From: Phycisphaerales bacterium
Lineage (GTDB): Bacteria > Planctomycetota > Phycisphaerae > WQYP01
Assembly (NCBI GenBank): GCA_027451365.1
Contig: DAIDJN010000035.1
Span: 1 to 64,000, forward strand
DNA: 64,000 nucleotides
Direction: 5' to 3'
Shown in pieces: positions 39,138-58,130 of the stretch (its first letter is position 1; each line of letters starts with the position of its first letter). A program made the position numbers and the translations under genes. The notes beneath the pieces are model-generated. The model searched no databases and was not told the origin of the DNA. It was given only the letters and a program-made list of their open reading frames with translations.

Positions 39138-39203
39138 CCAGAATCAGCACTGGGCGGTTGACAGAATGGACCGGCCGAAGACACAACAAATGGAGAAGCT
39201 AAT

Positions 39204-40710: not shown

Positions 40711-42588
40711 ATGCAAACACAGACCACCGCTCCGAAACCATTATCGAATCATTCGACCGAATCGCTGGCCGCGCTGGCACGGCAACTTCGCATTGATTCC
40801 ATCCGCTGCACAACCGCCGCGGGTTCGGGCCATCCGACTTCATCCATGTCTGCCGCAGAACTTATGGCCGTGCTGATGGTGGAACATCTGCGTTTTGACT
40901 GGTCTACGCCGCATCACCCCAACAACGACCGGCTGATTTTTTCCAAGGGCCATGCGTGCCCGCTGCTGTATTCGATGTATAAGGCCGCCGGCATTATTTC
41001 CGACGCCGAACTTCTGCGTCTAAGGAAAATTGACAGCCCACTGCAGGGGCACCCGAATCCGCACGTCCTTAAATGGGTGGACGTGGCCACCGGCTCGCTG
41101 GGGCAGGGCCTGCCGATCGGTGTGGGCATGGCACTGAACGCCAAGAACGTGGACCATCTGCCCTACCGTGTGTGGGTACTGCTGGGCGACAGCGAAATGG
41201 CGGAAGGCTCCGTCTGGGAAGCGTTTGATAAAGCCTCGTATTACAAGCTGAATAATCTGATTGCGATCATTGATATGAATCGCCTTGGCCAGCGCGGCGA
41301 AACCGACCTTGGATGGCATGGCGAAATTTATGCGGCCCGTGCCCGCGCCTTCGGCTGGCACGCCATTGAAATTGACGGCCAGGACATCAGCCAGGTTCAA
41401 AAGGCCTACAAAGAAGCGCTTGCCCAGACAGACCGCCCCACCGTCATTATCGCGAAAACTCAAAAGGGCAGTGGCGTTTCATTTCTGGCCAATAAGGATG
41501 GCTGGCACGGCAAAGCTCTTTCCGCAGATGAAGAGAAAAAAGCCATCGCCGAACTGGGCACACCAACTAACCTGGTGTTTCAAACACAGAAGCCAGAGAA
41601 TCTTCAGCCCACCGGCTGGGACCCGGCTGCAACGCTGACACTGCCAACGTATGCACTTGGCGGCAAGGAAGCGGCTCGCAAGGCCTATGGCGACGCGATT
41701 GCCGCCTTGGGCCACGCCGACCCCACCATTGTGGCAATGGACGCGGAAGTCAGTAATTCAACCCATGCTGACGAATTCAAGAAAGCCCATCCCGGCCGAT
41801 TTTTTGAAATGTTTATTGCCGAACAGCAACTGGTATCAGCAGCCGTTGGCTTTGGCGTGCTCGGCAAAAAAGCATTTGCCTCCACCTTCGCGGCATTTTT
41901 CTCGCGAGCCTATGACCAGATTCGCATGGCCGCGATTTCCAACGCCACCATTCGCCTGGCCGGATCGCATCCGGGAGTAAGCATCGGTCAGGATGGCCCT
42001 TCGCAAATGGCTCTGGAAGATATTGCGATGATGCGAAGCGTTTTTGAAAGTACAGTATTCTATCCATCCGACGCGAATCAGACAGTGAAGCTTGTGGCTC
42101 TGATGGCTGGAGTTAACGGCATTTCCTACATCCGCACCACACGCGAAAAACTTCCGATTATTTACAGTCCGGACGAGCAATTCAAAATCGGCGGCTGCAA
42201 AGTGATTCGCCAGTCGGCGCAAGATCGTCTGACCGTGATCGGGGCGGGAATCACGTTACATGAGGCCATCAAGGCGGCCGACGCGCTCGCCAAAGAAAGC
42301 ATTGCCATTCGCGTCATCGATTTGTATTCCGTCAAACCGGTCGACCATCAGACTTTGGCCAAAGCCGCCAGCGAAACCAACAATAAATTCATTGTGGTGG
42401 AAGACCATTGGGAAGAGGGCGGCCTGGGAGATGCCGTGCTCGATGCCTTTGCGCAATCGGCTAATCGCCCGCTGGTGGTGAAACTGGCTGTGCGGAAAAT
42501 GCCCGGCAGCGGCAGCCCGGCCGAATTGATGGCGGCTGCCGGAATTGATGCCGCCCATATTGTGGCCGCCGCCAAAAAGATGGCCTGA
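40711..42588 (+). CDS. tkt: Transketolase
   Basis: SGHPTS, SKGHA, TGSLGQG, GDSE..EG ThDP motif, GQDGPSQ. Confidence 0.93.
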   Translation: MQTQTTAPKPLSNHSTESLAALARQLRIDSIRCTTAAGSGHPTSSMSAAELMAVLMVEHLRFDWSTPHHPNNDRLIFSKGHACPLLYSMYKAAGIISDAELLRLRKIDSPLQGHPNPHVLKWVDVATGSLGQGLPIGVGMALNAKNVDHLPYRVWVLLGDSEMAEGSVWEAFDKASYYKLNNLIAIIDMNRLGQRGETDLGWHGEIYAARARAFGWHAIEIDGQDISQVQKAYKEALAQTDRPTVIIAKTQKGSGVSFLANKDGWHGKALSADEEKKAIAELGTPTNLVFQTQKPENLQPTGWDPAATLTLPTYALGGKEAARKAYGDAIAALGHADPTIVAMDAEVSNSTHADEFKKAHPGRFFEMFIAEQQLVSAAVGFGVLGKKAFASTFAAFFSRAYDQIRMAAISNATIRLAGSHPGVSIGQDGPSQMALEDIAMMRSVFESTVFYPSDANQTVKLVALMAGVNGISYIRTTREKLPIIYSPDEQFKIGGCKVIRQSAQDRLTVIGAGITLHEAIKAADALAKESIAIRVIDLYSVKPVDHQTLAKAASETNNKFIVVEDHWEEGGLGDAVLDAFAQSANRPLVVKLAVRKMPGSGSPAELMAAAGIDAAHIVAAAKKMA

Positions 42589-42619
42589 TCGCCAGACGAC
42601 CCGCACCGGCGGCCATTGG

Positions 42620-43756
42620 TTACAACCAGCCGCGAATCAACACGTCCGGCCCCAGACGCTCTGTTTCCCAACGGGAAATGTGGTGTGCGCTCGCCAATGG
42701 AATGGTGGCCGCAGACTCTACTGCATGACGGGCCAATGCGTCACCCAGAACAATAGGTGCAATAAAAACCCAGGTCTCATCTATCAGGCCATCACGCAAC
42801 AGCGACGCAATTAAGCGCGGCCCCCCTTCCACCAGAATATTGGTGCAGCCCATGCGGGCCAGGCGGCCAAGAACGGATCGCAGCGCCAGGGAACCAGCTT
42901 TGCGTCTGGCCGCGGGCATAAGCTGTATACCAGCTTTTTGCAATAATTTTTGACGCGACACAGCCGCACGATTCAGATTATTCCCATGCACCAGCAACAC
43001 GGGGAATTGGCCGCATGTTCGAACCAGATTGGATTCCAGCGGCAGACGGCATTCGCTGTCCAGCACCACCCGAAGAGCTATGCGATCAAGCATGCGCATT
43101 TTCACCGGTCGCGCCGTCAGAAACGGATCATCTGCCAAAGCCGTTCCAATGCCCACCATAATCGCATCCACCCGGCTGCGCAGGGCGTGCACACGCTGCC
43201 GTGAAAGATCGCCGCTGATCCATTTTGAGCGGCCGTGGCGATCCGCAATACAGCCGTCCAAACTTTGGGCCCACTTGGCAATAACATACGGTTGTTTGCG
43301 GGTAATCCATTTTATAAAGGGACGGTTGAGTTCCACGGCCTGATCCCGGCAGACATTCCGCGCCACGTTAATTCCCGCCCGCGCCAGCGCTGCCAGCCCC
43401 TTGCCGCAAACCTTTGGATTGGGATCGAGCATCGCCGCAACCACACGACTGATTCCCGCCGTTATAATCGCTTTGGTGCATGGCCCGGTTTTGCCGGTAT
43501 GGCAGCATGGCTCAAGAGTGACATACAGGGTTCCGCCGCGAGCCTTATTTCCGGCCTTTTTCAGCACCTCGATTTCCGCGTGAGGTCCGCCAAAACGCTG
43601 GTGCCAGCCACGTGCGATGACGCGGCCATTTTTAACCAGAACCGCCCCGACCATCGGATTAGGTTCCACCGCTCCGCGCCCAAGTCGGGCCTGCCGCAGG
43701 GCGATCCGCATAAAGCGATGGTCGGATGAATCACCGAAGGCGGCCTTGATGGTCAC
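42620..43756 (-). CDS. ribD: Riboflavin biosynthesis deaminase/reductase (start uncertain, 43756 or 43798)
   Basis: PNPMVGAV, HAE, LEPCCH.GKTGPC, SLDG, VEGG. Confidence 0.93.
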   Translation of the reverse strand: MTIKAAFGDSSDHRFMRIALRQARLGRGAVEPNPMVGAVLVKNGRVIARGWHQRFGGPHAEIEVLKKAGNKARGGTLYVTLEPCCHTGKTGPCTKAIITAGISRVVAAMLDPNPKVCGKGLAALARAGINVARNVCRDQAVELNRPFIKWITRKQPYVIAKWAQSLDGCIADRHGRSKWISGDLSRQRVHALRSRVDAIMVGIGTALADDPFLTARPVKMRMLDRIALRVVLDSECRLPLESNLVRTCGQFPVLLVHGNNLNRAAVSRQKLLQKAGIQLMPAARRKAGSLALRSVLGRLARMGCTNILVEGGPRLIASLLRDGLIDETWVFIAPIVLGDALARHAVESAATIPLASAHHISRWETERLGPDVLIRGWL

Positions 43757-43956
43757 AACAAAATCCTTGCGAAACAGGTATTGAGCCGCCGCAGACATCG
43801 TTTGGCTCTGTCGGCAACTCGTACCATCATATTATGGCGCAGCCCCCCTGGATTCACCAGCCAGGAATAGCTCTGGGCAGGAATATGAATATTAAACCAC
43901 AAATTGACAAAGGTGTTCCGCCCAATCCGGCTCGGCTGTTTCATTCCAGACCTGTT

Positions 43957-45336
43957 CTATTGTTCTGGTGGGGACGGATTGCCTGCTGCCGCGGCGGCGC
44001 GGTTGGGCACTGCGATATGATGGAGCGGCAGCGCGACAATTGCGTCCAGATCCGCGAGCCGTTCCAGGGCATCGGTCTGCAGGTCCAGAATGATCGCCTG
44101 AATTTCCAGTTCCTTCTGTCTGGCCCGAATTTGCCCCTGAATTCCTGCAGTACCCTGCTGATAATCCGACCGGGCCAGGTATGCGATCAATTTAACCCGT
44201 GGAAGAACTTTTTTGGAAAAAATCCGCAGCCGTAATTGATCATCTTGCAATGCCAGCAGATCAATGGTCAATTCGGCGTCCAGATTTATTTTTCTGCCGC
44301 GTAACATGGCATTGGCGGCCCGCAAGTCGCTTCGTGCCTGGGCAATGGATGCGTTAATCGACTGATATTGAAACAGCGGCATAATCAGCGCGCCGGTTAA
44401 ATTCTGCACTGTACCATCCAGCGATGTGGAGAGCCCCAGATCAAAATTAGGAATGTACTGCATTTTTGCCCGCTGGATACTTAATTTTCCAGACTTTTGT
44501 AATTGCCGCAATTCCTGTAAATCCGGGTTGCGCCGCACCGCAAGTTGTAAAAGCTGGCTGTCATTTAACTGCAGCGCTTCAACCGCGGGCAACGCCGACG
44601 GCGGGTCAAGAGGGGCCGTGGCGGATCGACCGAGCACCGCATTAAGCCGCGCTAATAGCGACGGCGTTCTGGCCTTCAGTGCGGCAATGCGCACCCGCAG
44701 AGTGTCTATTGAATTTTCACCGGTCAGCCAATCTGAAGTCGATCCGCCGGTGCTTACGGCCACCTGGCGAAGCAATACAGCCGACCGGATGATCACCAAT
44801 TGGCGTTGGACCAAATTCAACAATTGAAAAGTCCGGACATATCTGTACCAGGCAGTCAGAACATCCCTGCGGAGGGCAAAACGCGCTGACATAAATTTCC
44901 ATCCGGCCGCCTTAGCCTGGTGGAAGGCCCTTTCAGCCTGTACGGACATTTTTGAAGGCCAGCGAATATCGGCGCTCCCCATGTTAGACACACCCAGCGT
45001 CGAATTTGCCAATGAAGCCGAGCCATTGGTCAGAAGTGTGCCCGCATTCAACATCACGGTGGTCGGTTCGGCACCCGCCTGCGGTATTTGATCAATAGCT
45101 GAACGCCAGTTCCAATAGGCCTGCTCCACAGCGGGGTTGTGGATCAGCGCATAGGCCACCAGTTGGTCCGGCGTGGCCTTGATTGGCAATGGCGGCAGGT
45201 GGCGCTGCGCATATGGTTTGGCAAACGGCTTTCCATCGCGCGCCGCCGCCAGACGCAAGCGCGATTCCCCCGCCGGATGCATGGTGCAACCCGTCAGACT
45301 TGCAAGAAGAAGTACAATGACACAGCGACTTTTCAT
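43957..45336 (-). CDS. TolC/CusC-family outer membrane efflux lipoprotein
   Basis: Lipobox LTGC; A...NP repeats; overlaps the cusA stop codon. Confidence 0.85.
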   Translation of the reverse strand: MKSRCVIVLLLASLTGCTMHPAGESRLRLAAARDGKPFAKPYAQRHLPPLPIKATPDQLVAYALIHNPAVEQAYWNWRSAIDQIPQAGAEPTTVMLNAGTLLTNGSASLANSTLGVSNMGSADIRWPSKMSVQAERAFHQAKAAGWKFMSARFALRRDVLTAWYRYVRTFQLLNLVQRQLVIIRSAVLLRQVAVSTGGSTSDWLTGENSIDTLRVRIAALKARTPSLLARLNAVLGRSATAPLDPPSALPAVEALQLNDSQLLQLAVRRNPDLQELRQLQKSGKLSIQRAKMQYIPNFDLGLSTSLDGTVQNLTGALIMPLFQYQSINASIAQARSDLRAANAMLRGRKINLDAELTIDLLALQDDQLRLRIFSKKVLPRVKLIAYLARSDYQQGTAGIQGQIRARQKELEIQAIILDLQTDALERLADLDAIVALPLHHIAVPNRAAAAAGNPSPPEQ

Positions 45337-48300
45337 GACTGGTCTCCTGTGGATTCGGTTGGCTTACGCCACATTTTCAGTGAAATCCGTGGTGCGCCGA
45401 ACAGCGTCCAGCCCATGACGATATAGTAAAGCGCCGGCAGCACCAGAAGTTCCAGAACAAATGCCGTTCCCAGGCCACCGATCATCGGGGCGGCCAGACG
45501 ACGCATGACCGTTGCCCCTGCGCCGTGTACCCAAAGCAATGGCGTCAGTCCGATCAGTGCAGCGCAGACCGTCATGGTCTGCGGACGAATGCGCCGCACC
45601 GCACCGGTCCGCACCGCCTCAAACAGATCCTTGCGGTCACGCAGAACGCCCATATATCTGGCCTCGTTAAAGCTTACATCCAGGTACAGCAGCAGCACCA
45701 GTCCCATTTCCGCACATAGACCGGCCAAGGCGATAATCCCGACCCAGACCGCCACCGAAAGCTGGTAGTGCAGAAAATACAGAGCCCATATCGCACCCAC
45801 CAGACCAAATGGCACGGAAAGAAGCACACCCAGCACGCGCCCGACGCTTCCAGTCGCGACGAACAACAGAATAAAAATTATCAGAAGCACCAATGGTATG
45901 ACGAGTTTCAGGCGGTCATTGGATTCCTGAATCTGTTTGTAAAGACCGATCCACTGGTAAGTGTAGCCAACGGGAAGCACAACGTGACTGCGGATCGCCG
46001 CATTGGCACGGTGTACATAACCAATGGTGTCATTTACAGTTGATGTAATGTTGATGTAATTAAGTGTTAAGGCGTCCTGGGAGTCTATTTCCGGCGGACC
46101 CGAACTGTAGTGGATATTGGCTAACATTCCCAGATTGATAAAAGCACCACTGGGTGTGGCGATGGGCAAGGCTTTCAGGGCAGAGACGCTCCCGCGCAGA
46201 TTCCGGAAATACCGCACAGTAACAGGCAGCCGCTTCAATCCAAGCACCATGGTGCTCACCGGCTCTCCCCCGATGGCCATGGTGATCATTTTCTGCACCG
46301 CGCCCTGGGTTAAGCCATATCGCGCCGCACGCAGTCGATTGATATGAATGCTCAGGTAATACCCCCCCAGCGGCTGGTCCGCAATCGCACTTCCAGTTCC
46401 GCGAACACCCTGCAACGCGTGGGCAATCTGATTGGAAACCTTGCCCAGCACTCCCAGATTTTCGCCAAACACCCGGATACCCAGCAGTGTTTTGCTGCCC
46501 GTATTCACCATGTTCACCCGATTGGCGATGGGCATCGTCCAATAGACGGCAAAACCAGGAATTTTCAGGGCCTCATCCATTCCCGGATGATGTTTCCCGT
46601 CCGCACCCGTCCAGCCGTGCTTTACCTGCATCAGCGTCAGGTGCGCTGTGGAAGGCCAGAACGTATGCGCAAAGGGCCACTGTATCCAGTGCGGCCAGGA
46701 ATCATAAAATCGCCTCACCGGCGCGCTGGGCCATTGTGCCCGGCGTTTAAGCCGCACAATGGTATCTACCATATTCATCGGTGCCGAATCGGTGGCGGTA
46801 TCCGCGCGGCCAATCTGGCCGAAAACAGTCTTCACTTCGGGAAAGCTCTTGATAATTTTATCGCTTTGCCCCAGTACATACCGTGCCGCCCCAACACTGA
46901 TACCGGGGTAGGTCGTCGGCATGTATTCCAAATCCCCTTCGTAAAGCGGGGGCGTAAATTCCGTTCCCAGCCGGGACAGTGGCCAGAAAATTGAAAGGCA
47001 AAGCCCCGCCATCAGGACAAGAATTGGCCAGCGCAAAAATATGGCGATACGGAAAACAGGATCAAAGCACTTTTGCAGCAGGCGGGCAACAAAATTGTGG
47101 TCTTCATGAATGATCTCCTGCGGTATGACCAGCAATATCGCCAGAGCCATCCAGCCGATACACAGCCACCCGCGGTAGTGCCCCAGTTCACTGCCCAGAC
47201 CTATCACATGATAAAGGCCTATTGCCGGCAGAATCACAATAGCCAGGGCAACTGGCCATTGAATCCATCGTGGCCAGCTTTCCGGAAACAATCGCGGACT
47301 GATGAAATAAATCATCAGCACCGGCACAATGGTAATTGACAGCAGCGCCGCGGAGGCAATCGCAAAGGTCTTGGTAAGCGCCAGCGGCGAAAACATTTTG
47401 CCACTTTCGCCCGGCAATACAAATATCGGCAGAAAACTTACCGTAATAATCAGCAGGCTGAAAAACAGACTCGGCCCGACCTCCGCCGCCGCGGATAGAA
47501 TCAGGTCGGCTCGCGGTACTGGCGGATATCCGTTTGTGACGCGCTGTTCATCGCGATTTATATGCTGGTGTGCGTTTTCCACCATCACAATCGCGCTGTC
47601 CACCACCACTCCAATCGCAATGGCAATCCCGCTTAAACTCATAATATTGGCGCTGATCCCCAACCAGTACAAAATAGCCAGGCTTATAATCATGCTGGAT
47701 GGAATAACCGTTATCGCCACCAGACTGCTGCGCCCATGAAGCAGAAACACCAGGCATATCACCGCGACAACAATCATTTCCTCCATCAACGTATCGGACA
47801 GAGTATGAATGGAACGGCTGATCAGATTCGTGCGATCGTAGCCGGTTTTAAACATGATTCCCGGCGGCAAACTGCTGGTCAGGACCGCGATTTTCCTTTT
47901 GACCTGCTGAATCACTCTGTAGGTATCCGCGCCCGAACGGACCACCACAATACCTCCCACCGCCTCCCCCAGACCATTCCAATCCAGAACGCCCAGCCGC
48001 TGCGCGCCGGCTATCTGTATCGTGGCGACGGTACCCAGCAAAATCGGCGTGCCATTCTTCGCCTGGCCAACTGGCACATCTCTTAGCTGCCCGACATTTT
48101 TCAAATACCCGCGGCTGCGCACAATGTATTGAAATTCGCCACGATCCACGACCGCGCCACCCACATCATTATTGGACTGTTGAATGGCGAGCGTTACCTG
48201 ATTGATGCCGAGGTGATACGCCCGCAACTTGTTGGGATCCAGCACCACCTGGTATTGCTCTTCAAAACCACCCAGCCCGGCTACTTCGGAAACACCCGGC

Positions 48301-48986
48301 ACCGCTTCAAGCTGATATCGTACGAACCAGTCCTGAAGCGACCGCAATTGGCCCAGATTGATATCGCATGATACCAGAGGCTGCCCCGACAGCGGTGATT
48401 TTCCCGGATGGTCAAAAGCCCGCACCAGTTGCAGTTGCCTGCGGTCTTTCACCGGCGCCTGTGCTCGATGTGCGTACCAATGATTGGTTTGACCGTTATG
48501 CCAAATCCCATTGGGATGATGCCGGGCATACCAGCCCGGATAGAGCACATACTGAAAAGCCCAGCCCGCCCCGGTCGCGTCTGGACCAAGTTGCGGATTA
48601 ACGCCCACGGGCAGAAGGGTTTTGGCATAACTGAGGTATTCGAGTACGCGACTTCGCGCCCAGTAAAGATTCGTTCCATTTTTGAATACCACCGTCACCA
48701 GCGAATATTCAAACATGCTTGAACCGCGTACAGCTTTTACATCTGGCGCGTGAATCAACTGCGTTTCCAGCGGATAGGTTACTTGCTTTTCCACGACTCC
48801 GGGCGATTGACCGGGGTAGTTGGTCAGCACCAGCACTTGCACGTCAGATAAATCGGGAACCGCATCCAGCTTGCTGTGAAAAGCGGCCCAGCCCGCAACG
48901 GCCACCACCATCAGTGATAACAGCACCACCAGCACGCGGTTCTTTACAGACAATTCAATAATTTTACGGATCATGTTGTGGTCCAT
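45333..48986 (-). CDS. cusA: CusA/SilA-type heavy-metal RND pump with several insertions (start 48986 or 48974)
   Basis: DAVPDLSDVQV, YWARSRVLEYL, LGPDATG, AIGVVVDSAIVMVEN; Met triad at YMPT, PMNMVDT, RVNM. Confidence 0.9.
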   Translation of the reverse strand: MDHNMIRKIIELSVKNRVLVVLLSLMVVAVAGWAAFHSKLDAVPDLSDVQVLVLTNYPGQSPGVVEKQVTYPLETQLIHAPDVKAVRGSSMFEYSLVTVVFKNGTNLYWARSRVLEYLSYAKTLLPVGVNPQLGPDATGAGWAFQYVLYPGWYARHHPNGIWHNGQTNHWYAHRAQAPVKDRRQLQLVRAFDHPGKSPLSGQPLVSCDINLGQLRSLQDWFVRYQLEAVPGVSEVAGLGGFEEQYQVVLDPNKLRAYHLGINQVTLAIQQSNNDVGGAVVDRGEFQYIVRSRGYLKNVGQLRDVPVGQAKNGTPILLGTVATIQIAGAQRLGVLDWNGLGEAVGGIVVVRSGADTYRVIQQVKRKIAVLTSSLPPGIMFKTGYDRTNLISRSIHTLSDTLMEEMIVVAVICLVFLLHGRSSLVAITVIPSSMIISLAILYWLGISANIMSLSGIAIAIGVVVDSAIVMVENAHQHINRDEQRVTNGYPPVPRADLILSAAAEVGPSLFFSLLIITVSFLPIFVLPGESGKMFSPLALTKTFAIASAALLSITIVPVLMIYFISPRLFPESWPRWIQWPVALAIVILPAIGLYHVIGLGSELGHYRGWLCIGWMALAILLVIPQEIIHEDHNFVARLLQKCFDPVFRIAIFLRWPILVLMAGLCLSIFWPLSRLGTEFTPPLYEGDLEYMPTTYPGISVGAARYVLGQSDKIIKSFPEVKTVFGQIGRADTATDSAPMNMVDTIVRLKRRAQWPSAPVRRFYDSWPHWIQWPFAHTFWPSTAHLTLMQVKHGWTGADGKHHPGMDEALKIPGFAVYWTMPIANRVNMVNTGSKTLLGIRVFGENLGVLGKVSNQIAHALQGVRGTGSAIADQPLGGYYLSIHINRLRAARYGLTQGAVQKMITMAIGGEPVSTMVLGLKRLPVTVRYFRNLRGSVSALKALPIATPSGAFINLGMLANIHYSSGPPEIDSQDALTLNYINITSTVNDTIGYVHRANAAIRSHVVLPVGYTYQWIGLYKQIQESNDRLKLVIPLVLLIIFILLFVATGSVGRVLGVLLSVPFGLVGAIWALYFLHYQLSVAVWVGIIALAGLCAEMGLVLLLYLDVSFNEARYMGVLRDRKDLFEAVRTGAVRRIRPQTMTVCAALIGLTPLLWVHGAGATVMRRLAAPMIGGLGTAFVLELLVLPALYYIVMGWTLFGAPRISLKMWRKPTESTGDQS

Positions 48987-49037
48987 TTTCGGGGAACAAT
49001 CGGGTTTGAAATCAGAATCACCCGCGCCAATGCGCAA

Positions 49038-50408
49038 CTATTTGGATATATTCGGGGCCAGCGTAGTGCCGACGACCGGCTTCGCCGCCGTGGCTTTCGG
49101 CAAAAAACGCGCCTTAAGCTGGCTATATTGAGACTCCACATCAATCATGAATTGACCGCTGGTCACCACTTTTTGCCCCGGCCCGAGTCCGGATATTACC
49201 TGCACCAGACCATGCGCCCCCACCAGTCCGGTCGTGACCTTTACCGGATCAAAATGCCCGTGCGACGTTTCAATAAACACCAGTTCGCCGGTACCAGTGT
49301 TTATTACAGCGCGGCGCGGCACCAGAATGGTGTGCTTCAACGGACTGGTAAGAACATCCACCATGGCAAACATTCCCGGGCGAAGCATCCCGTCGGAATT
49401 GTCCAGAGCCACACGAACTGTGATTGTGTGATTTTCCGGATTTTCAAGCGGGTCTATGAAAATAATGCGGCCGGTAAATTGTTTGCCGGGAAACGCCGCG
49501 ATACTGGCCACTACGCGCTGTTTCATCGCAATCCAGGGAAGCTGGTTCTCATACACATAGGTGTTAAGCCAAAGTGTGGAAAGATCATCCACGCGCATCA
49601 CGGTCATGCCGGCCGTAATCGGCGATTTCTGCTGTACTTTTATCTCCGCAAGAATGCCGTTGGCGGGACTGGTAAAAGTGACATACACTTCCGGTTTCAG
49701 GGTTTTAAGGACCCTTTGAATGGTAACCTGATTCACCCCCAGAAATTTCAGCCGCATGGACACAGACCGAACCAGTTCTCGGGCTTGGCCAATCGCCTGC
49801 CTGTCCGCACCTTTTCCAGCCATGGAAACCATCTTTTGAGCCGCCACGAGTTCCTGCTCCGCGGCCACAATCTTCGGACTGTACAGCGTGAACAGCGGCT
49901 GCCCGCGGCGGATGATTTGCCCATTGGTGGTCGCAAACAGTTTGCCAATCCAGCCATCCGCGCGCACTGTGATCGCCACGCGTTTTGGTGCGGCTACCTG
50001 CAACGTGCCGACAGTCCGTACCCGCCTGGTCAATGCCCCCAGGGTGACCAAACCGGTTTGAATGCCCATGTTCTGTACCATGGCGGGATCCACATGAACC
50101 TGTCCCGGATTATTGCTTTCGCTTGATGGCGCATAAACCGGTTTGAGCGGCATACCCATGGAACTGATGCCCGGTTTGGGCGAAATAGACGATGCTCCGA
50201 CCATGGAGTCCCACCAATACAGTATCTTTCGTTTGGGGACGGCCTTTTTCGTGGCAGATAATTCGGCCGTTTTGTTCGGTTTGCTCTGTCCGGCAACACC
50301 ACCGCCGACGGCATGGCCGAGGGCAGATTGCAGAACAATCGCCAGCATAAAGCCAAATATCGCGCAAATAATTCCGACAAGTCCGGTCGTGATCAATCGA
50401 AGTCGCAT
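49038..50408 (-). CDS. cusB: CusB-type membrane fusion protein with N-terminal Met-rich metal-binding domain
   Basis: ILYWWDSM...KPG.S.MGM.LKPVY; LYSP, LRPGMFA, GQKVVTSGQFMID.ES. Confidence 0.88.
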   Translation of the reverse strand: MRLRLITTGLVGIICAIFGFMLAIVLQSALGHAVGGGVAGQSKPNKTAELSATKKAVPKRKILYWWDSMVGASSISPKPGISSMGMPLKPVYAPSSESNNPGQVHVDPAMVQNMGIQTGLVTLGALTRRVRTVGTLQVAAPKRVAITVRADGWIGKLFATTNGQIIRRGQPLFTLYSPKIVAAEQELVAAQKMVSMAGKGADRQAIGQARELVRSVSMRLKFLGVNQVTIQRVLKTLKPEVYVTFTSPANGILAEIKVQQKSPITAGMTVMRVDDLSTLWLNTYVYENQLPWIAMKQRVVASIAAFPGKQFTGRIIFIDPLENPENHTITVRVALDNSDGMLRPGMFAMVDVLTSPLKHTILVPRRAVINTGTGELVFIETSHGHFDPVKVTTGLVGAHGLVQVISGLGPGQKVVTSGQFMIDVESQYSQLKARFLPKATAAKPVVGTTLAPNISK

Positions 50409-50533
50409 TAAAATACCCCAAATATAGTTGCCAAGGCCCGGCGATCCGGGTCTGGACGGACGCCGTGGGCAATAAATGCCTGTGATGGCGAAATCGCCGT
50501 CACACACATATAAGATCTATATTTGTAGATATT

Positions 50534-50977
50534 TTAGATTATTAATACGATGTACCGGCTCTGCGGTGTGTGCCAACGGAAATAAGGCAGCCGACGAACC
50601 TCCGCCGACCGGATTACCGCATGATGAAAACAAAATGCCGCAGCAGCCAGTCGCGGCATAACAGGATTCAAGACAATCGATACGGAGGGGCAAAATGCCA
50701 ACGGAAATCCGCCTGAACCGGTCAGTCGGCATTTGGAGCACGGCCGCGACCCGCCACCGGTCTGCGGAAGGCCCGTGCACGGATTGCCATTCATTCGCCG
50801 CATACAGGCGTTGCCGACAGGGCCACACCGGCAGCATGGCATCGTGGCCATACACCGGGCTTGCCTCATCGGCCTGCGATGAATATCACGGCCTCCCGCG
50901 ATCCGGCATTGCGCCGGCCGCGAGACCGGCGCAAATAGCACACTCACGCAGACCAGAATGACAAAAAAAAGTTTCAA
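50534..50977 (-). CDS. Cys-rich exported/leader protein upstream of the cus genes
   Basis: Signal-like N-terminus; PCCRC and CSKC; hydrophobic C-terminus YIVLII; co-oriented with cusB. Confidence 0.55.
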   Translation of the reverse strand: MKLFFVILVCVSVLFAPVSRPAQCRIAGGRDIHRRPMRQARCMATMPCCRCGPVGNACMRRMNGNPCTGLPQTGGGSRPCSKCRLTGSGGFPLAFCPSVSIVLNPVMPRLAAAAFCFHHAVIRSAEVRRLPYFRWHTPQSRYIVLII

Positions 50978-51042
50978 CCGTCAAATACCCCGGGTTAAAA
51001 TTGCCTACCGGTACTGCAAACCCGACGGGCAACCGTGAAGCC

Positions 51043-51459
51043 TTATTGATGAAGGTTATCGCTCAGATGAATCTTCATCCACATATCGCCCATGCGCCAC
51101 CAGATTTTGGTCGGGTAAATCACTTTGTCCTTCATATCCTCTTTTCCGACCACCTTAATCTGCACACCGACATATTTTGCCAGCGGCTTAGGATTGGTCA
51201 GCAGCGTAAACGCATGACCGCCGATCAGGATGCCCGCGGGTATGCCACTGGCCAGGCACTTTTGGCCGCAGGTTTTGCCATGCGCCCGCCCCGTCATGCC
51301 CATAGTGCTGTAGCACGCCATATCCAGCAGTTCCCCTTTCGCAGTGATCTTCTTTATTACCGGCTTAGCCACCGAGGCTGCATGGAGGGGTAACGCAACG
51401 GCGGACAATAAAGCCAATCCAATTGCCGAACCGCAAGACATCTTCAAAAACTGCTTCAT
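51043..51459 (-). CDS. Small periplasmic protein with GE..D.AC...H..C...C...G.P.GIL motif, Met-rich
   Basis: Signal peptide ending LHA-A; GGAG RBS; clustered Cys/His/Met. Confidence 0.75.
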   Translation of the reverse strand: MKQFLKMSCGSAIGLALLSAVALPLHAASVAKPVIKKITAKGELLDMACYSTMGMTGRAHGKTCGQKCLASGIPAGILIGGHAFTLLTNPKPLAKYVGVQIKVVGKEDMKDKVIYPTKIWWRMGDMWMKIHLSDNLHQ

Positions 51460-51674
51460 ATAAAAACTCCTGAAAATGTGTGAAACAACTTCCGTCTGCA
51501 ATTGAGATAATTCTAATCAATAGTGGCATCTCGGGCCACCACTTAAAAAAATGCCTTAAGCAGGCCCGCGTCGACGGATTGTCGACACCACTGGCCGACA
51601 ACCTGACTACAACCGGTTGCCGCCAAGTCGCGGACATGGCGCATAACGACATGCACATTCAATCAGTTGCGTAT

Positions 51675-52025
51675 TCACGGGCGACCATGGATCGCCCAAT
51701 CCGGGTGGTAATGTCCTTTGGAATCAGTAAACAGCGACGGATTAGATGACACAAGATGAGCGCGCCCCGTCAAGGCATACGGCGAGATCTGAACCATTGG
51801 AAGCCCAAGTCGCTTATTGCTTGTCGACAAAGTCGCAAAGTACCAATCCGGGTGGTAATGCCCCTTGGAATCAGTAAATGCCACGGGATTGAATGTTGCT
51901 TTGGCCGCGACGTTCCCGTTTTGACTCTTGGCAAATGTCGCTGCCTGCGCCATGATGCCGCCGGCGGTCACACAGCCGACTAATACCCCCAACACCAGCC
52001 CATTCTTCAGGTTTAACGTAAACAT
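51675..52025 (-). CDS. Secreted small protein with two FTDSKGHYHPDW repeats
   Basis: RBS GAGGTG; signal peptide ending AQA-A; internal repeat; shares its motif with 53609..53848. Confidence 0.85.
   Translation of the reverse strand: MFTLNLKNGLVLGVLVGCVTAGGIMAQAATFAKSQNGNVAAKATFNPVAFTDSKGHYHPDWYFATLSTSNKRLGLPMVQISPYALTGRAHLVSSNPSLFTDSKGHYHPDWAIHGRP
51696..51878 (-). repeat. Two 36-nt direct repeats (51696-51731, 51843-51878) encoding FTDSKGHYHPDW
   Basis: The copies differ at 2 positions, both synonymous. Confidence 0.92.
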
Positions 52026-52101
52026 GATACCACCTCGCTATATTAAGCGTCCGCCCGCAATCTGAACCGACACCCGGTTTCGCGACTGCGGGAACAATAA
52101 A

Positions 52102-52132
52102 TAAGACGCCCTACACGGGGCCAAAAGTTCCA
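52102..52132 (-). promoter_or_regulatory. ECF-sigma-type promoter P1 (repeat-peptide gene, possibly the whole cus operon)
   Basis: TGGAACTT-N16-CGTCTTA. Confidence 0.75.
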
Positions 52133-52346
52133 CTGATTGTCAGAATTTGGTTTCCTTGAGGTGCAACCGAATTGAAACAAAATATGCGATGCCGACAGTT
52201 ATGCACGCAAGCCGCTTCGCCCGATTTATCCGCAAACTATCCGAAACTGTCTGTTAATAAGGCAATAATGTTGGACGACGGCATATTTAGATGCAAATTG
52301 CCCACAGTTTTATAAATTGGCACAGATTTTGTAGTGCTATTTTGGC

Positions 52347-53021
52347 ATGAACAGAAATTGGATGGCGCGAGCCTGCTCAATATTGCTTTTGCTGGTTTTG
52401 GGTGGTTGCACGTCTGGAATGGACGCTGGCGACCAGTCCGCCGTCGAAAGCCAATGGGTTTTGCAGCGCGGTGGTGTTATTCGCGGTTCGCAGCAGTTGC
52501 GCGCACAACTGTTATGCGATCGCTTATGCCGCGGCTGGATACATAATTCAATTCATGTCCGGATCGTCAATAGCAGTTTGCTTGGTGCGTGGACCTGGCC
52601 AGACAGGGATATTTATATTACCCGGGGGCTGGCCTTACATCTGACCGATGATGAACTTGCCGCGGCAATTGCCCATGAAATGGGGCATCTTATTAACAGC
52701 AACGCCGTCCAATGTCCGTATGCACTGGGTCGCAACGGTGAAAAGTTGGGAATTGAAGCCGGTGCCGATCTTACGGGATCTCGCGTTTTGGCCGCTCATG
52801 GCATTTCGCCGCAATGCTTGATCCGGGTTCTGCAGTTGTTATACCGGTGCAGTTCCAATGTATCGCTTCGGAATTCACTGCAATTGCGGATTCAAGCACT
52901 CTTATCCGCAATCTCTTCCGGAAGCATTGATAAACGTCTGCGCAATGTCTCCCGGGCACGCGATACCCGCGATCTTACCGTTCCCACTTGCACAGCCAAT
53001 ACCTCTGCAGCAATTTCGTAG
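52347..53021 (+). CDS. M48-family zinc metallopeptidase, lipoprotein
   Basis: Lipobox LGGC; IYITRGL...DDELAAAIAHEMGH; E..AD. Confidence 0.85.
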   Translation: MNRNWMARACSILLLLVLGGCTSGMDAGDQSAVESQWVLQRGGVIRGSQQLRAQLLCDRLCRGWIHNSIHVRIVNSSLLGAWTWPDRDIYITRGLALHLTDDELAAAIAHEMGHLINSNAVQCPYALGRNGEKLGIEAGADLTGSRVLAAHGISPQCLIRVLQLLYRCSSNVSLRNSLQLRIQALLSAISSGSIDKRLRNVSRARDTRDLTVPTCTANTSAAIS

Positions 53022-53473
53022 CTTAGTTGTACAACATCCACAAGCAGGATGGTCCACCGCATATCTTCCGGCAGCGATTTTAGCGCCGCAATCACAGTTT
53101 GATCCGAAAAAGCCTCCATCATCGCATCGGCATTACGAATATCCAGCGTTTCCGCGACAGCATCCGTATCTGCGGGATCATTGCCCGATTCACATAATTG
53201 ATCCAGGCTCGCATTGTGATGAATGTGCGCACCATCAGACCGCAGGCGGTCAACCCAGGTATGCCGCAGTATCGTCAGCAACCAGGCTCGCAGATTCCCA
53301 CCCTTTTCATCAAACTGATGCAAGCCACGCCATGCTTTCACAAGTGCTTCTTGTGCAATTTCCTCGGCTTTTCCGGCGTTATGCGTCATCAACATAGCCG
53401 CACGAAGCACCGTTGATCGTTCTGGCCAAACTAATTCGTAAAAGCGCTTTGAATTGCTTTCCGGCGTTTTCAA
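52892..53473 (-). CDS. ECF RNA polymerase sigma factor
   Basis: Region 2 AEEIAQEALVKAW..LRAWLLTILR; region 4 LSYE.AAEVL....GTVRSRVSRAR; TTG start after GGGAG. Confidence 0.92.
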   Translation of the reverse strand: MKTPESNSKRFYELVWPERSTVLRAAMLMTHNAGKAEEIAQEALVKAWRGLHQFDEKGGNLRAWLLTILRHTWVDRLRSDGAHIHHNASLDQLCESGNDPADTDAVAETLDIRNADAMMEAFSDQTVIAALKSLPEDMRWTILLVDVVQLSYEIAAEVLAVQVGTVRSRVSRARETLRRRLSMLPEEIADKSA

Positions 53474-53506
53474 TTCCCGCTCCCAACAGTAATAAACAAT
53501 TGGCAA

Positions 53507-53537
53507 TGGAACCGTTTAGCCGGGCGACTTCGTCTGA
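53507..53537 (+). promoter_or_regulatory. ECF-sigma-type promoter P2 (small lipoprotein gene)
   Basis: TGGAACCG-N16-CGTCTGA. Confidence 0.75.
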
Positions 53538-53608
53538 TTAAACGTGGCTGAGTTATCGGCAACGTGCCGGATACCTGTGGCCGAAGGAACCGCAAAAGGA
53601 GAAAAATC

Positions 53609-53848
53609 ATGTCTCGCACACGTCTTGTTATAATCAAGGTGCTGCCAACCTTCCTCTTAGGGGCAAGTGTCGTGGCGCTGGTTGGTGGATGCACTTCCAC
53701 ATCCAGCAACCCGGGTGCCTATGCCCTCACCGGCACAAACAGCCCGCCGACATTCATTCCGCCTGCGTCAACAATTGACGGCAAAGGCCATTACCATCCT
53801 GACTGGTATTTTCATGGCCGCCAGTTACCCTCTGGACAGGGTCAGTAA
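53609..53848 (+). CDS. Small lipoprotein with YALTG and DGKGHYHPDWYFHGR motifs
   Basis: AAGGAG RBS; lipobox VGGC; motif shared with 51675..52025. Confidence 0.85.
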   Translation: MSRTRLVIIKVLPTFLLGASVVALVGGCTSTSSNPGAYALTGTNSPPTFIPPASTIDGKGHYHPDWYFHGRQLPSGQGQ

Positions 53849-53920
53849 AATTTCATTCTCCGTTGCGAAAGTGTCAACATAATTTTGCATCGGAGCCTTA
53901 TAACGTTCTTTCCTCAATCC

Positions 53921-53977
53921 GCCGCCCGGTTTAACTTTCTTATTACCGGTTGTTAACCGGGCGGCTGTTGCCTTTTT
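53921..53977 (+). terminator. Probable terminator after the small lipoprotein gene
   Basis: GCCGCCCGGTTTAAC...GTTAACCGGGCGGC stem with a T-rich tail. Confidence 0.55.
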
Positions 53978-54253
53978 AAGCGACCGCGCCACGCAGTTTA
54001 CACTCCTCTTTCATCGATAACCAAAAGCCCCTCTCTGCGTTAACCGACCACATAACGCGACGGCGATGAGAATTTAAGCACATTGCCCCGATTATTTCCG
54101 ATGGCAAGTCAGCGCTCGCGACGATTTCCTGCAGGACGGTCCAGATTATCCGTCGCCGCGATAAAACAGCAATAGACCGACAGGTAAATGCGTGGCTGGC
54201 GGTCAAATAAGTCTTATTTAACCAAGTCAAATACTCGGACTCTAAAATCAAAT

Positions 54254-54910
54254 TCACCGTCCACTCGAATGCATCTGATTAGCAATTAACATAAGCTTAC
54301 TTACCCGCTGAGGCCCCATCACACATATCCAATGCCGACTGCCGGATTGAATCACCATATTCAACTGACCGGTCTTTTGCACGATAAAGGACTTACCGTC
54401 TAATCGTCGAAGCTGCCCCTGTGGATATTCAAGTTTTCCGGCAGGCACAACCACCACCCCCACTGTCTGATTGCCGCGCTTTACCAGCATGCACGCCACA
54501 CGATGATGATGAAGAGTTTGCATGCAACAATTGGCCATATTCCCTGCCTGAGGCGAACACATGCGTTGAAGATTATTTTTCTGCGCGTCGGTCATTCCGC
54601 CTGACATGGGTGAAGCCAGCATATGATTATAAATTTGTGATAGATCGTTAACCGACGCCCGGCTGCTATGGGGCGCCATAAGGGGGATTAGAAATGCGGC
54701 CAGCATAACTGCGGCCGCAACCAGGCCAGATACGGCGATCCGCCAGGTGCCAACGCTTCTTTTGGGTGCCAAAATTTGCTCCCGTAGTGCACAATCCAGA
54801 CCGGTTGTGTCCACCGGCATGGTTGCTAGACGGGCCAAGCGGCGGGCGACGGCCTGATTGTCCCCGTCTTGCTGGGAATTGCATTCAGAATTGCGAATCT
54901 GTTCAGCCAT
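54254..54910 (-). CDS. Putative single-TM anti-sigma factor with Cys/His/Met-rich periplasmic domain
   Basis: Short helical cytoplasmic N-terminus, one TM segment, then MCSP..MANCCMQTLHHH..CM; near the ECF sigma gene. Confidence 0.65.
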   Translation of the reverse strand: MAEQIRNSECNSQQDGDNQAVARRLARLATMPVDTTGLDCALREQILAPKRSVGTWRIAVSGLVAAAVMLAAFLIPLMAPHSSRASVNDLSQIYNHMLASPMSGGMTDAQKNNLQRMCSPQAGNMANCCMQTLHHHRVACMLVKRGNQTVGVVVVPAGKLEYPQGQLRRLDGKSFIVQKTGQLNMVIQSGSRHWICVMGPQRVSKLMLIANQMHSSGR

Positions 54911-54990
54911 AAGATGCCCCGGAAGCGTTTAGTCAACAACAAAATTCCAAATCACGGCACGCACCGTAATTGCGCAGCTTTACCAAAATA

Positions 54991-55021
54991 TATAACGATT
55001 AACAGGCCTCGGAAAGTTCCA
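54991..55021 (-). promoter_or_regulatory. ECF-sigma-type promoter P3 (anti-sigma gene)
   Basis: TGGAACTT-N16-CGTTATA. Confidence 0.7.
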
Positions 55022-55383
55022 ACGTGCCAATCGCCATCCGCATCCCCATCCGCAGTTCATTTTCGCCGCTAATTAAAAATTCCGCGGCATGCCGAATCCA
55101 GCAAAATAACGGCCTGGCCTTGCGGAAAAGAATTAACGCATAGAAGGAAAGCACTTCGAAATTAGAAGAGTTCTATGGTCGTGGACTTATTTATCCTCGG
55201 CTTGGGAACACGCGTCAGTCGCATTTGGCGATCTGCAAAACCGGCCGAATTGGCCAATTTTTGATCCCCCAATAAGTTCGTGCATCAGACCGCGCTTCCC
55301 ACCGCATTGCAGGGTTTGCGCATTACGCATATAACCACGGCGCGTAAACTGAAAATGGTCAGCATTGGAATAAAGGAACGAAT

Positions 55384-56280
55384 GTGCCACCCCTATCCGA
55401 CGCTCTGATGAATTCATCCATACCGAATCTGGCTGTGCGCCGCGGGAAGGTTCGCGATGTCTACGACCTTGGCGATACGTTGCTGATTGTGGCAACCGAT
55501 CGCATTAGTGCTTTTGACGTCATAATGCCCACGCCCATACCGGGTAAAGGTCGTATTCTTACCCAACTAAGCAATTACTGGTTCAAGAGGCTGTCCAGCA
55601 TAGTCACGCATCATCTGGTGGCCACGCGGATGGAAGATTTCCCCGCGTCGCTTCAGCCGTTTGCGGCACAACTTGCCGGCCGATCTATTTTGGCGCGGAA
55701 AACCAGCGTTATCCCAGTGGAATGCGTGGTGCGAGGTTATATAGCCGGCGGCGGGTGGAATGAATATCAGCGCACTGGCGCAGTCTGCGGAATTGACCTT
55801 CCAACCGGATTAGAGCGGTGTCAAAAACTTGCGCAGCCCATTTTTACACCCACAACCAAAGCCGCGGCGGGTCATGATGAAAGCATATCGTTCGTGGGCG
55901 CTGTACAGATTGCCGGCCTGCAAACCATGGAATTTGTGCGCGACATGTCGATCCGGCTTTATGAAGAAGCGGCTAAAATTGCGCTGGCCAGAGGTATTAT
56001 TATTGCGGACACAAAATTTGAATGGGGCATTCCATTCGGTGAATCGCGTCCCATTCTGATAGATGAAGCCCTCACACCAGATTCCTCCCGGTTCTGGCCA
56101 GCGGAAAATTATCGACCGGGAACCGAACCCGTCAGTTTCGACAAACAATATGTACGCAATTATCTTGAAACTCTTGCGTGGAATAAACAGCCGCCTGGGC
56201 CAATCCTTCCCGCAGATGTCGTCGCCCAAACTCTGCAAAAATATCAAGACGCGTACGATAAGCTCACGGGCGAGCGGTAG
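55384..56280 (+). CDS. purC: SAICAR synthetase
   Basis: GKVRDVY, ATDRISAFD, ECVVRGY, IADTKFE, DE.LTPDSSRFW. Confidence 0.96.
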   Translation: MPPLSDALMNSSIPNLAVRRGKVRDVYDLGDTLLIVATDRISAFDVIMPTPIPGKGRILTQLSNYWFKRLSSIVTHHLVATRMEDFPASLQPFAAQLAGRSILARKTSVIPVECVVRGYIAGGGWNEYQRTGAVCGIDLPTGLERCQKLAQPIFTPTTKAAAGHDESISFVGAVQIAGLQTMEFVRDMSIRLYEEAAKIALARGIIIADTKFEWGIPFGESRPILIDEALTPDSSRFWPAENYRPGTEPVSFDKQYVRNYLETLAWNKQPPGPILPADVVAQTLQKYQDAYDKLTGER

Positions 56281-56387
56281 ACCACGACCAGAATGTAGAG
56301 TCCAAGACTGAAGTAAGAACGTCGATTCCGGCTTAATCCATTCAAATCCGCGATTAATGGCAATTGTTTCCGTTCTCGTCCGGTTTG

Positions 56388-56396
56388 TGCTATACT
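56388..56396 (+). promoter_or_regulatory. Extended -10 promoter for SRP RNA
   Basis: TGcTATACT just upstream of the RNA. Confidence 0.6.
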
Positions 56397-56413
56397 TGCA
56401 ACTCTGTCGCTTC

Positions 56414-56521
56414 AGCCATGGTCGGGCCCGATGCACGGGTCGACTGTGAACCTGGTCAGGTCCGGAAGGAAGCAGCCATAAGCATGCCCGGTCCGGTGCC
56501 GTCGGTAGCCCGACCATGGCT
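56414..56521 (+). ncRNA. ffs: Signal recognition particle RNA (small bacterial, 4.5S)
   Basis: GGTCAGGTCCGGAAGGAAGCAGC core; terminal stem AGCCATGGTCGGG/CCCGACCATGGCT. Confidence 0.95.
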
Positions 56522-57010
56522 TAAGCGCCTTACACCAGATTTAAACCGTCGCATTCTCGGCCAGCAGGCAATAGATTCCAAGTGTGTCATTTCTCCGGTC
56601 CACAAGGCAATCACGAGCTTTTTGATCGTCGGTAATCACTTGCCGCCCGGCGCGTGCCGCCATCGGATATTATCCTATGCGTTGCCTGTGGATTTTTCTG
56701 ATAGCGAATGCCAAACTCAAACCGATTTTGTTTGTCAACCGGGCAGGATACAAGTGACGATGGGCAGTGAAGCTGATGGCACGGTTTTGGTACCGCGGCC
56801 AGCGCCCGAATCTGCCGTTGGCCGCAGGGGCCGAGCGGCGGATCCCGGCGGTTCTCCGAAAACACCAGACGGGCGAGACCGGGTTGGCAATTTTCGGAAT
56901 TGGTAACGGCGGGCCAATCGCGCCCTTGCGTTCCTTCGCAGCAGTTGGAATCTGCCATCTTAGAATTTTTGCGGCATCTGCCGCGACTGGATTCCGCAAT
57001 GGAGGCAACT

Positions 57011-57595
57011 ATGCCTGAAACCACACTGGCCGCAACCGCCAGAGAAGTGCTGCATCTGCTGCGAAGCTCGTCGGACTCCGGCGCGCGTGCCAGCCAGCTT
57101 GAAAACGCCTGTGCCCGCCTGGCGAACGAGGTGCAGAAATCTGCGTCACCGCCGAGGAAAACGGAATTTAATCGAATTCTTGTGGCAATTGATGCCAGCT
57201 TGCCGGCTGTACATGCGCTGGAAACCGCTCATTCAATGGCCAGGGAATTGGGCGCGACGCTGGCGGTCGTGCATGTAATCGACGCCTCACCCGTACCGAT
57301 CACCGAACCACCTGATGTATCCGCTCTTGGTTTTGCGGCTATCGAACGTGAATCCATGGATTTGTGCAATCGGCTGCTGGCCAGAATAGATCGGTCGAAT
57401 GTGCAGCTATTCTTGCGGCGCGGCAGTCCGCCGATGGAAATAATGCAAACCGCGTCGGAATGGAAAGCAAAACTTATCATCATGGGAAGCCACGGGCGCA
57501 GCCGCCCGGGAAAGTTCTTTCTGGGAACGACCGTAGAGGCAGTTCTGCGGGAATCAACCTGCCCGGTAATGGCGGTGGGCGACGCGATGCATTGA
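57011..57595 (+). CDS. Universal stress protein with N-terminal extension
   Basis: RILVAIDAS, G.P..EI, LIIMGSHGR, LG.TVE.VLR..TCPV; GGAGG RBS. Confidence 0.88.
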   Translation: MPETTLAATAREVLHLLRSSSDSGARASQLENACARLANEVQKSASPPRKTEFNRILVAIDASLPAVHALETAHSMARELGATLAVVHVIDASPVPITEPPDVSALGFAAIERESMDLCNRLLARIDRSNVQLFLRRGSPPMEIMQTASEWKAKLIIMGSHGRSRPGKFFLGTTVEAVLRESTCPVMAVGDAMH

Positions 57596-57839
57596 AGCAT
57601 CTCCGCAGATTTTAATCTCGGAAAATGATGAAAACCAATTCCGAGAGCCGGCTGGGCGGCGACCAAATCAATATTCTTACGGCGGCAACTGGCCGCAAAT
57701 CGATATTCTGCTAAAATTCAAAAGCGCAATGGAGTAAGATATTCCGAATCGAGCAGCTTATTGCGGCCGAGTTGATCGGAGTTCATCGAATATAATTATC
57801 ATTGGCGGCAGAGCCGACCGGCACAAAGGATTAACGCCC

Positions 57840-58052: not shown

Positions 58053-58130
58053 GCCAAGGCGCGCAACGTTCGAGGTGCCGGTCATCATCCAGAAGCCGCG
58101 CATTCGCGGATGGATTGTGCCATTGTGTCG

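Follow-up and report, generated by a model that had tools for sequence, protein, structure and literature searches.

Among the described systems closest to the locus analyzed here is CnrYXH-CnrCBA of Cupriavidus metallidurans (ECF291), in which, as far as the available part of the source goes, an extracytoplasmic function (ECF) sigma factor and a membrane anti-sigma factor lie beside a full operon for a heavy-metal efflux resistance-nodulation-division (HME-RND) pump (PMC7826278). Our locus occupies positions 43957..55021 of a 64,000-nucleotide stretch (the window) of contig DAIDJN010000035.1, from the genome of a Phycisphaerales bacterium (4.06 Mb, 93% complete), and has the same kind of arrangement; unlike CnrYXH, it has a Cu/Ag-type CusA and an extra module of an M48 peptidase with small peptides, and its anti-sigma factor is modeled as carrying its own Cys-bearing, MucB/RseB-like periplasmic domain. 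No Pfam or NCBIfam match to CnrY or a separate CnrX was obtained among the locus proteins, and CnrY sequences themselves vary, according to the same portion of the source (PMC7826278). Judged from its genes, the locus may work like CnrYXH-CnrCBA with different parts, failing the tested CnrY and CnrX features.

The pump genes resemble E. coli CusCFBA in their Met-triad CusA, CusB, outer-membrane factor, and small periplasmic OB-fold protein upstream, but, unlike E. coli CusCFBA/CusRS, the window genome has no CusRS or CusF over the family cut-offs. The operon position and OB-fold class of CusF presumably match those of the periplasmic protein, which has Cys and His in place of what we take to be a His/Met/Trp site in CusF. 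A third point of comparison is provided by the bufferins under SigF-NrsF (ECF16), which, in the available part of their description, are likewise small peptides exported by Sec, under ECF control, and linked to copper stress (PMC11626156). Unlike that system, as described in the same part of the source, the window has a one-pass rather than a six-pass anti-sigma factor and, where that system has a modifying enzyme, a dedicated protease (PMC11626156), and its peptides have no conserved core Cys. Neither MNIO (DUF692) nor DUF2063 was matched among the 16 locus open reading frames (ORFs) scanned, in agreement with an earlier note on this DNA, which had seen no modification enzyme.

We interpret the locus, tentatively and with slightly less than an even chance, as a copper-pump ECF regulon joined to an undescribed module, in which a plug-less M48 protease would probably cut an induced peptide at a PYAL(T/R)G motif. 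In its regulatory core the locus is a new variation on a known design; what is new in kind is the plug-less M48 together with its PYAL(T/R)G peptides. All genes named in the earlier note were recovered, the outer-membrane factor, cusA, cusB, a Cys-rich ORF, the periplasmic protein, and peptide 1 on the minus strand, as noted there, the ECF sigma factor and the anti-sigma factor also on the minus strand, and M48 and peptide 2 on the plus strand, as follows:

43957..45336, minus strand: outer-membrane factor of the CusC/TolC type (PF02321, 62.5 bits, cut-off 22)
45333..48974, minus strand: CusA-type HME-RND pump (ORF open from 49037, probable start 48974)
49038..50405, minus strand: CusB-type membrane fusion protein (PF16576; ORF open from 50507)
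50534..50977, minus strand: Cys-rich exported ORF, a possible CruR/CutF-like copper-sensing leader (orthologue in locus L004)
51043..51459, minus strand: periplasmic OB-fold protein, a putative Cu(I) chaperone in the CusF position (alignment A5, AlphaFold2 model)
51675..52025, minus strand: peptide 1, exported, with the order repeat-PYALTG-repeat (two DSKGHYHPDW, 147-nt spacing; homologues P0001-P0004)
52106..52131, minus strand: predicted ECF-type promoter (GGAAC-N18-CGT) for peptide 1, the periplasmic protein, the Cys-rich ORF, and cusBAC
52347..53021, plus strand: minimal M48 lipoprotein peptidase (PF01435, 33 bits, cut-off 20.3)
52892..53506, minus strand: ECF sigma factor without C-terminal extension (PF04542 and PF08281; probable start TTG 53473)
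53508..53533, plus strand: predicted ECF-type promoter (GGAAC-N18-CGT) for peptide 2
53609..53848, plus strand: peptide 2, a lipoprotein with the order lipobox-AYALTG-single DGKGHYHPDW repeat (alignments A4 and A7)
54254..54910, minus strand: one-pass membrane anti-sigma candidate (alignment A1; Cys128, Cys140, Cys196)
54995..55020, minus strand: predicted ECF-type promoter for the anti-sigma gene (top-ranked matrix site of the genome)

The M48 protease and its peptide partners

The window M48 has the PF01435 match, HEXXH plus Glu, conserved Arg, and envelope location found in LoiP/YcaL and BepA, as given in the accessible part of PMC7950410; unlike these proteins, it is only ∼190 residues long, lacks the HPx4R plug, and has an AL.G loop and a dedicated peptide partner. 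That part of the source describes HPx4R as an autoinhibitory plug conserved across PF01435, with its His serving as the fourth zinc ligand in BepA (PMC7950410). Among its relatives, H110, E111, and H114 of HEXXH, E137, and Arg181 are invariant (14/14, alignment A6), while HPx4R is absent from 27 of 27 and an [ASML][LI]x0-2G motif occurs in the loop after HEXXH in 26 of 27, where the window protein reads CPYALG. By sequence, then, this would be an atypical M48-like subfamily and a predicted peptidase. The M48 gene overlaps the ECF gene by 130 nt at their 3' ends, and in homologous loci it often converges on the sigma operon; because no ECF motif precedes it in the window, it is probably made constitutively.

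Peptide homologues were gathered by protein, DNA-pattern, profile, and neighborhood searches, and 30 genes were tabulated (L217, L240, and L241 were found later). A relaxed core motif was present in all 30 and the strict PYAL(T/R)G type in 26, compared with a background of 58 among 12,290 small ORFs (0.5%). This core precedes at least three kinds of tail, namely, the KG repeat, RxGTNGxY, and GNYxYETEL. The [DN]xKG[HR] repeat was found in 16 of the 30 genes, HxH in 12 (and in 12/16 KG-type peptides), and KGHYHP[DE]W in 9, while the mature part of 3 contained no His. Arg, Gln, or Met takes the place of one or the other His in L052, L137, L138, L164, L169, L204, L217, P0028, P0041, and P0042, the replacement being Arg in L164, L169, L204, L217, P0028, P0041, and P0042; an invariant first His of KGH is ruled out by L169 and L217. 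Since either His can be replaced and only 9 of 30 genes carry it, KGHYHP[DE]W is a lineage variant; what marks the family is PYAL(T/R)G, not the His-x-His element that had been taken as the defining feature. Within the window genus the KG-type repeat is invariant, and in six frames of the window genome KGHYHP occurs three times, always within peptides 1 and 2. The only conserved peptide Cys is that of the lipobox; peptide 1 has a possible lipobox Cys, which its four homologues lack.

The proposal that the peptides are regulon members was strengthened. In 22 of the 30 peptide genes the ECF promoter motif is located between −85 and −120 (background, 0.0017 per such window), and all 16 KG-repeat peptides have it 98 to 113 nt upstream of the start; it is kept even where no ECF gene is adjacent (L032, L069, and L217). 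Among 28 peptide loci, many of them short, M48 was found within 2.5 kb in 22, an ECF or anti-sigma gene in 12, and cus genes within 12 kb in 9; the peptides track M48 more than cus.

The peptide and M48 are inherited together. Across 401 genomes of the class, the M48 subfamily was found in 27 and profile-detectable peptides in 15; 14 of these 15 were among the 27, and the fifteenth has a diverged M48 ∼0.5 kb away. Seven of the 15 had supplied training rows (two of them chosen via M48), and the other eight were all M48 positive. Among genomes with the anti-sigma factor, a peptide was found in 12 of the 18 with M48 versus none of the 55 without it, and in genus g3 the three M48-positive genomes have peptides, with none found in seven others. 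The co-occurrence spans at least four families and several gene orders. Viewed from the protease, 19 of 29 M48 places (excluding G286) have an intact partner within ∼2.5 kb, one has an interrupted gene, and at nine none was found. The peptide profile misses the type found in L144 to L147, where the M48-peptide pair lies among genes for a urea-transport-type binding protein, UreF, a UreG-type protein, and an amidase; these peptides have no KG repeat and no ECF promoter ahead, and three of the four end in RxGTNGxY.

One genome flagged as unpublished, G286, is counted once in the totals of 15, 27, 73, 12/18, 30, and 28, and L057 seems to represent that stretch a second time. Without it, peptides were found in 14 of 400 genomes, with 13 of 14 overlapping M48, and the anti-sigma comparison becomes 11/17 versus 0/55. 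It contributes one row each to alignments A3, A4, A6, and A7, two of the sites in the matrix, and a single M48 loop, and it alone shows a CsoR-like repressor and a P-type ATPase beside a peptide.

With respect to the wider searches, 49 GTDB loci matched DxxGxYHPxW, of which 4 were true homologues (L057, L058, L069, and L079, the last repeating the L004 stretch and counted once) and 45 were unrelated proteins or noncoding frames. A search of 1.84 billion proteins gave 20 matches; 14 were small peptides (P0038 without the core motif), 6 were set aside as long repetitive proteins, and no peptide-M48 fusion was found among them. Also discarded were L034, a flavoprotein-like false match, and the weak A4 matches L110, L111, L114, L113, L116, and L120, which have no core motif; the weak matches L112, L115, L117, L122, and L124 were left out of one-by-one inspection. 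L110, L111, and L114 (genus g2) belong to a separate small lipoprotein family ending in KNVHW[CG]DEF.AN, without PYALTG. P0005 is a 67-residue single-repeat form of peptide 1, 98% identical and present on seven contigs, to be explained either by loss of a repeat or by a collapsed assembly. In some relatives the place of the peptide, in or near the regulon, is taken by other small exported proteins rich in Cys, at L048 near 2760, L200 near 11040, L214:9909-10280, and L215:8259-8600. No paper on KGHYHPDW, GHYHPDW, or PYALTG, or on ECF plus anti-sigma plus CusA in Planctomycetes, was found in a literature search that left subscription journals mostly uncovered.

Pump, sigma switch, and accessory proteins

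CusA matches TIGR00914 at 958.7 bits (cut-off, 701.45), and in its alignment with E. coli CusA (3t51; E value of 2e-262) Met is retained at all three aligned sites, which we take to be M573, M623, and M672 in E. coli numbering; the Met triad claimed previously is thus borne out. For CusB, the top NCBIfam match was CusB NF007303, under its cut-off. This CusA is the single one of its kind in the genome, the other RND genes being <31% identical. As for CusRS, no match to CusR or CusS (TIGR01387 and TIGR01386) passed the family cut-off in the 93%-complete genome; the best heavy-metal-like two-component pair below it lies at C84:36200-43940, near another RND gene.

The ECF/anti-sigma/cus core is common in Phycisphaerae. 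The anti-sigma factor was present in 73 of 401 genomes, and 43 long anti-sigma loci, some cut by contig ends, contained the ECF gene in 41 cases, cusA or cusB in 31, M48 in 7, and the periplasmic gene in 6. All three GGAAC-N18-CGT sites reported earlier (52106-52131, minus; 53508-53533, plus; and 54995-55020, minus) were found, and with a matrix built from 37 homologous sites of other genomes, chosen by the same motif, they took ranks 1, 2, and 10 of the 68 sites scoring >12 in the genome, with 54995-55020 at the top. The other high-scoring sites revealed no clear regulon member. In homologous loci, [GT]GAAC-N17/18-CGT recurs upstream of cusB, the outer-membrane factor, the periplasmic gene, the ECF gene, and the anti-sigma gene, and L004, from the same genus, has no peptide 1 yet keeps the operon, with the promoter before the periplasmic gene. 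Scans for sigma-70 promoters and terminators stayed at chance level. Core conservation and the recurring motif support the claim that ECF control stands in place of CusRS, and the neighboring ECF/anti-sigma pair likely switches on the CusCBA-type pump. As to other targets, a gene that we take to be lgt-like stands behind an ECF promoter divergent from the ECF gene in L049 and L197, and lipoprotein maturation may belong to the regulon; in L215 another target is what, from its sequence motifs, is presumably a heavy-metal P-type ATPase-like gene. The homologues of the window ECF gene mostly seem to begin at TTG or GTG. No promoter motif belongs to this gene itself, and transcription starting at the anti-sigma promoter would pass through peptide 2 in the antisense direction.

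In the anti-sigma candidate, a single membrane helix at residues 54 to 78 is followed by a periplasmic domain in which Cys128 is invariant and Cys140 and Cys196 are near-invariant (alignment A1). The model of this domain resembles the C-terminal domain of MucB/RseB (Z score of 8.6, root mean square deviation of 4.0, and 102 aligned residues; for a second match, 7.8, 2.8, and 94), with which TM1622 ties (Z score of 8.8). It is a one-pass putative anti-sigma factor like that of ECF28 with DUF3379, and its Atlas cluster is 31% DUF3379 at 0.96; DUF3379 itself gave no match on the window protein, and one of two homologues tested reached 17.2 bits, under the cut-off of 33.2. The available part of the source places ECF28 in Gammaproteobacteria, near genes for the degradation of aromatics, and reports that it lacks a conserved promoter (PMC7826278).

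The periplasmic protein has no Pfam match, and CusF (PF11604) was not found over the cut-off anywhere in the genome. Cys49, His60, Cys64, and Cys68 are invariant in 15 sequences (alignment A5), and the AlphaFold2 model (pLDDT of 82.9) has only OB-fold matches, which are generic (Z scores up to 6.2); CusF, CnrX, and CnrY were not among the structural matches listed, and Foldseek gave no match for this protein or the anti-sigma factor at E values up to 0.001. We regard it as a putative Cu(I) chaperone on the basis of this model. A second copy, 53% identical, lies at C59:19096-19374.

The Cys-rich ORF has a 40% identical orthologue in L004 (9070-9510) and similar ORFs in L040, L043, and L046. Like CruR/CutF (DUF2946), it is exported, ∼147 residues long, and upstream of copper genes, with CxxC followed 44 residues later by R-x-x-P; the accessible part of the source defines CruR/DUF2946 leaders by CxxC plus RAPP ∼45 residues apart (PMC9426467). 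Unlike CruR/CutF, its RAPP is degenerate (RRLP in the window and RHPP in L004) and lies ∼16 residues from the C terminus, and no Pfam match was found, DUF2946 included. By this analogy it possibly adds a second, translational control layer.

Proposed mechanism and competing explanations

The first step of the mechanism that we favor is quite probable: periplasmic Cu(I)/Ag(I), or the resulting thiol damage, would hit the conserved Cys residues of the anti-sigma factor and free the sigma factor, upon which the pump, the chaperone-like protein, the peptides, and the anti-sigma factor would be transcribed. The next step, recognition of the motif by M48 and a cut at or near YA|LTG, is more tentative and falls just short of evenly balanced. 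Such a cut is preferred because a constant motif stands before variable tails and is co-inherited with one protease; the M48 clan prefers a hydrophobic P1' residue. It would release the C-terminal cargo from the lipid anchor or, in peptide 1, separate one repeat from the other, and PYALG in the M48 loop would act as a built-in self-substrate replacing the missing His plug. More speculatively, the cargo (an aromatic-x-D-x-K-G-H/R hairpin) might buffer or signal periplasmic metal in the copper regulon, and the urea/UreFG loci might employ this module with another tail. The generalization that this is a new envelope peptide class, in which an M48 with a built-in substrate motif matures PYAL(T/R)G precursors with interchangeable C-terminal peptides, including copper and urea/nickel cargoes, is a doubtful one at present. 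Of the two roles that had been suggested for M48, peptide processing is the better supported; M48 occurs in just 18 of the 73 anti-sigma genomes and is therefore dispensable for the sigma switch, which argues against anti-sigma processing.

Several points weigh against our interpretation. Cleavage, binding, induction, and transcription starts are all inferred, and an M48 that has lost the plug His could also be poorly active or inactive. Five of the 28 peptide loci have no nearby M48 (their genomes hold it elsewhere), at 10 of 29 M48 places an intact partner is missing within ∼2.5 kb, and related genomes are not independent in the co-occurrence counts. The core pattern found in 30/30 peptides was fitted to these same sequences, and many of them were found by looking beside M48. 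Because profile-profile comparison of M48 with the peptides aligns the signal peptides only, the shared motif is short and possibly convergent. The bare GGAAC-N18-CGT pattern is weak, with 6 occurrences in the window versus 2.1 expected (2 of 100 shuffles reach 6), and genome-wide the N18 spacing (133) is no commoner than N16 (128), N17 (128), or N19 (139). Finally, the RNA evidence described below consists of contigs from one study and is silent on strand, level, and a single transcript. A complex prediction for M48 (residues 22 to 195), Zn, and peptide 2 (residues 28 to 79) gave a score of 0.02 and a mark of 0.32 with an uncertain partner fold and was counted neither way.

Within the same regulon, the peptide could instead be an uncleaved inhibitor, a trans plug docking via PYALTG on the plug-less M48 with a His as possible fourth Zn ligand and thus a means of feedback, or M48 could be a non-cutting scaffold. 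All 27 M48s lack HPx4R, whose His plugs BepA according to the available part of the source (PMC7950410), many peptides carry H-P, and both partners are lipoproteins and co-inherited. Nevertheless, we consider this explanation unlikely, as the L144 and L169 partners, without His or without the KG repeat, adjoin the same M48 type, so that His is not a general plug, and varied tails after one motif resemble cargo more than an inhibitor. The earlier note took the His-x-His peptides to be chelators or chaperones; in this version the unmodified repeats would serve the pump as copper chelators or chaperones, and M48 would be either incidental or a degrader of the anti-sigma factor. The invariance of the repeat in the window genus, its doubling in peptide 1 at the head of the pump operon, the HxH kept by most KG-type peptides, and the mine-drainage labels of the DNA and RNA runs that hold the locus are in its favor; it is nonetheless rather improbable given the His substitutions in the 10 homologues named above, the 55 of 73 anti-sigma genomes that lack M48 and all lack a peptide, and the same-genus genome that keeps the operon without peptide 1.

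Alternatively, the sigma factor might answer general envelope or thiol stress rather than copper, with the pump as one target of several. This would suit the 12 of 43 anti-sigma loci showing no cusA or cusB (some cut by contig ends), the presumed lgt-like gene after the promoter in L049 and L197, and the MucB/RseB-like anti-sigma domain; with cusA or cusB in the other 31, the motif often directly before cusB or the outer-membrane factor gene, and other targets being metal related, such as the presumed ATPase of L215, it is quite improbable. That the peptides and M48 are mere passengers, functionally linked neither to each other nor to the pump, appears very improbable: the patchy distribution and the interrupted L201 peptide gene would fit, but the promoter distance is fixed even without an adjacent ECF gene (L032, L069, and L217) and the co-occurrence extends over at least four families and several gene orders. 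In L201, near 13700, the break is by sequence that we take to be transposase-like and follows an intact promoter and the start of the gene.

Should our interpretation be correct, Planctomycetota would control Cus by a route that needs no two-component system, with a Cys-bearing, MucB/RseB-like sensor domain amenable to testing in E. coli. A single autoinhibitory plug is generally regarded as common to M48 peptidases, few of which have known substrates; a natural plug-less subfamily that is accompanied by its likely substrate and has the substrate motif in its own loop would make M48 regulation and specificity testable using two small proteins. In acid mine drainage bacteria, the peptides may further correspond to bufferin-type copper peptides, but without the modification.

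Expression and surroundings of the locus

In three mine-drainage metatranscriptomes of one study, RNA contigs extend over the periplasmic gene and the 3' portion of peptide 1 (X9, 51016-51735; X7, 50998-51876; X11, parts of that stretch), and X7 also covers 53664-53993, including peptide 2. RNA contigs were almost absent over cusA, the outer-membrane factor gene, and most of the control region 24000-43400, where contig absence is not informative. Four DNA runs containing at least half of the sampled words were likewise labeled mine drainage (one study, possibly including the source sample), and a DNA contig of run X1 covers 47411-55500 with 52 differences and no repeat loss listed.

An ORF at 53976-54257, between peptide 2 and the anti-sigma gene, had no homologue among the compared loci and was dropped. 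The flanks (37740-43798 and 55384-63359) contain ribD, purC, and Usp by Pfam and have a housekeeping and sugar-acid look, with two presumably ketoacyl-synthase-like ORFs and genes that we take to be transketolase-like and kduI/kduD-like.

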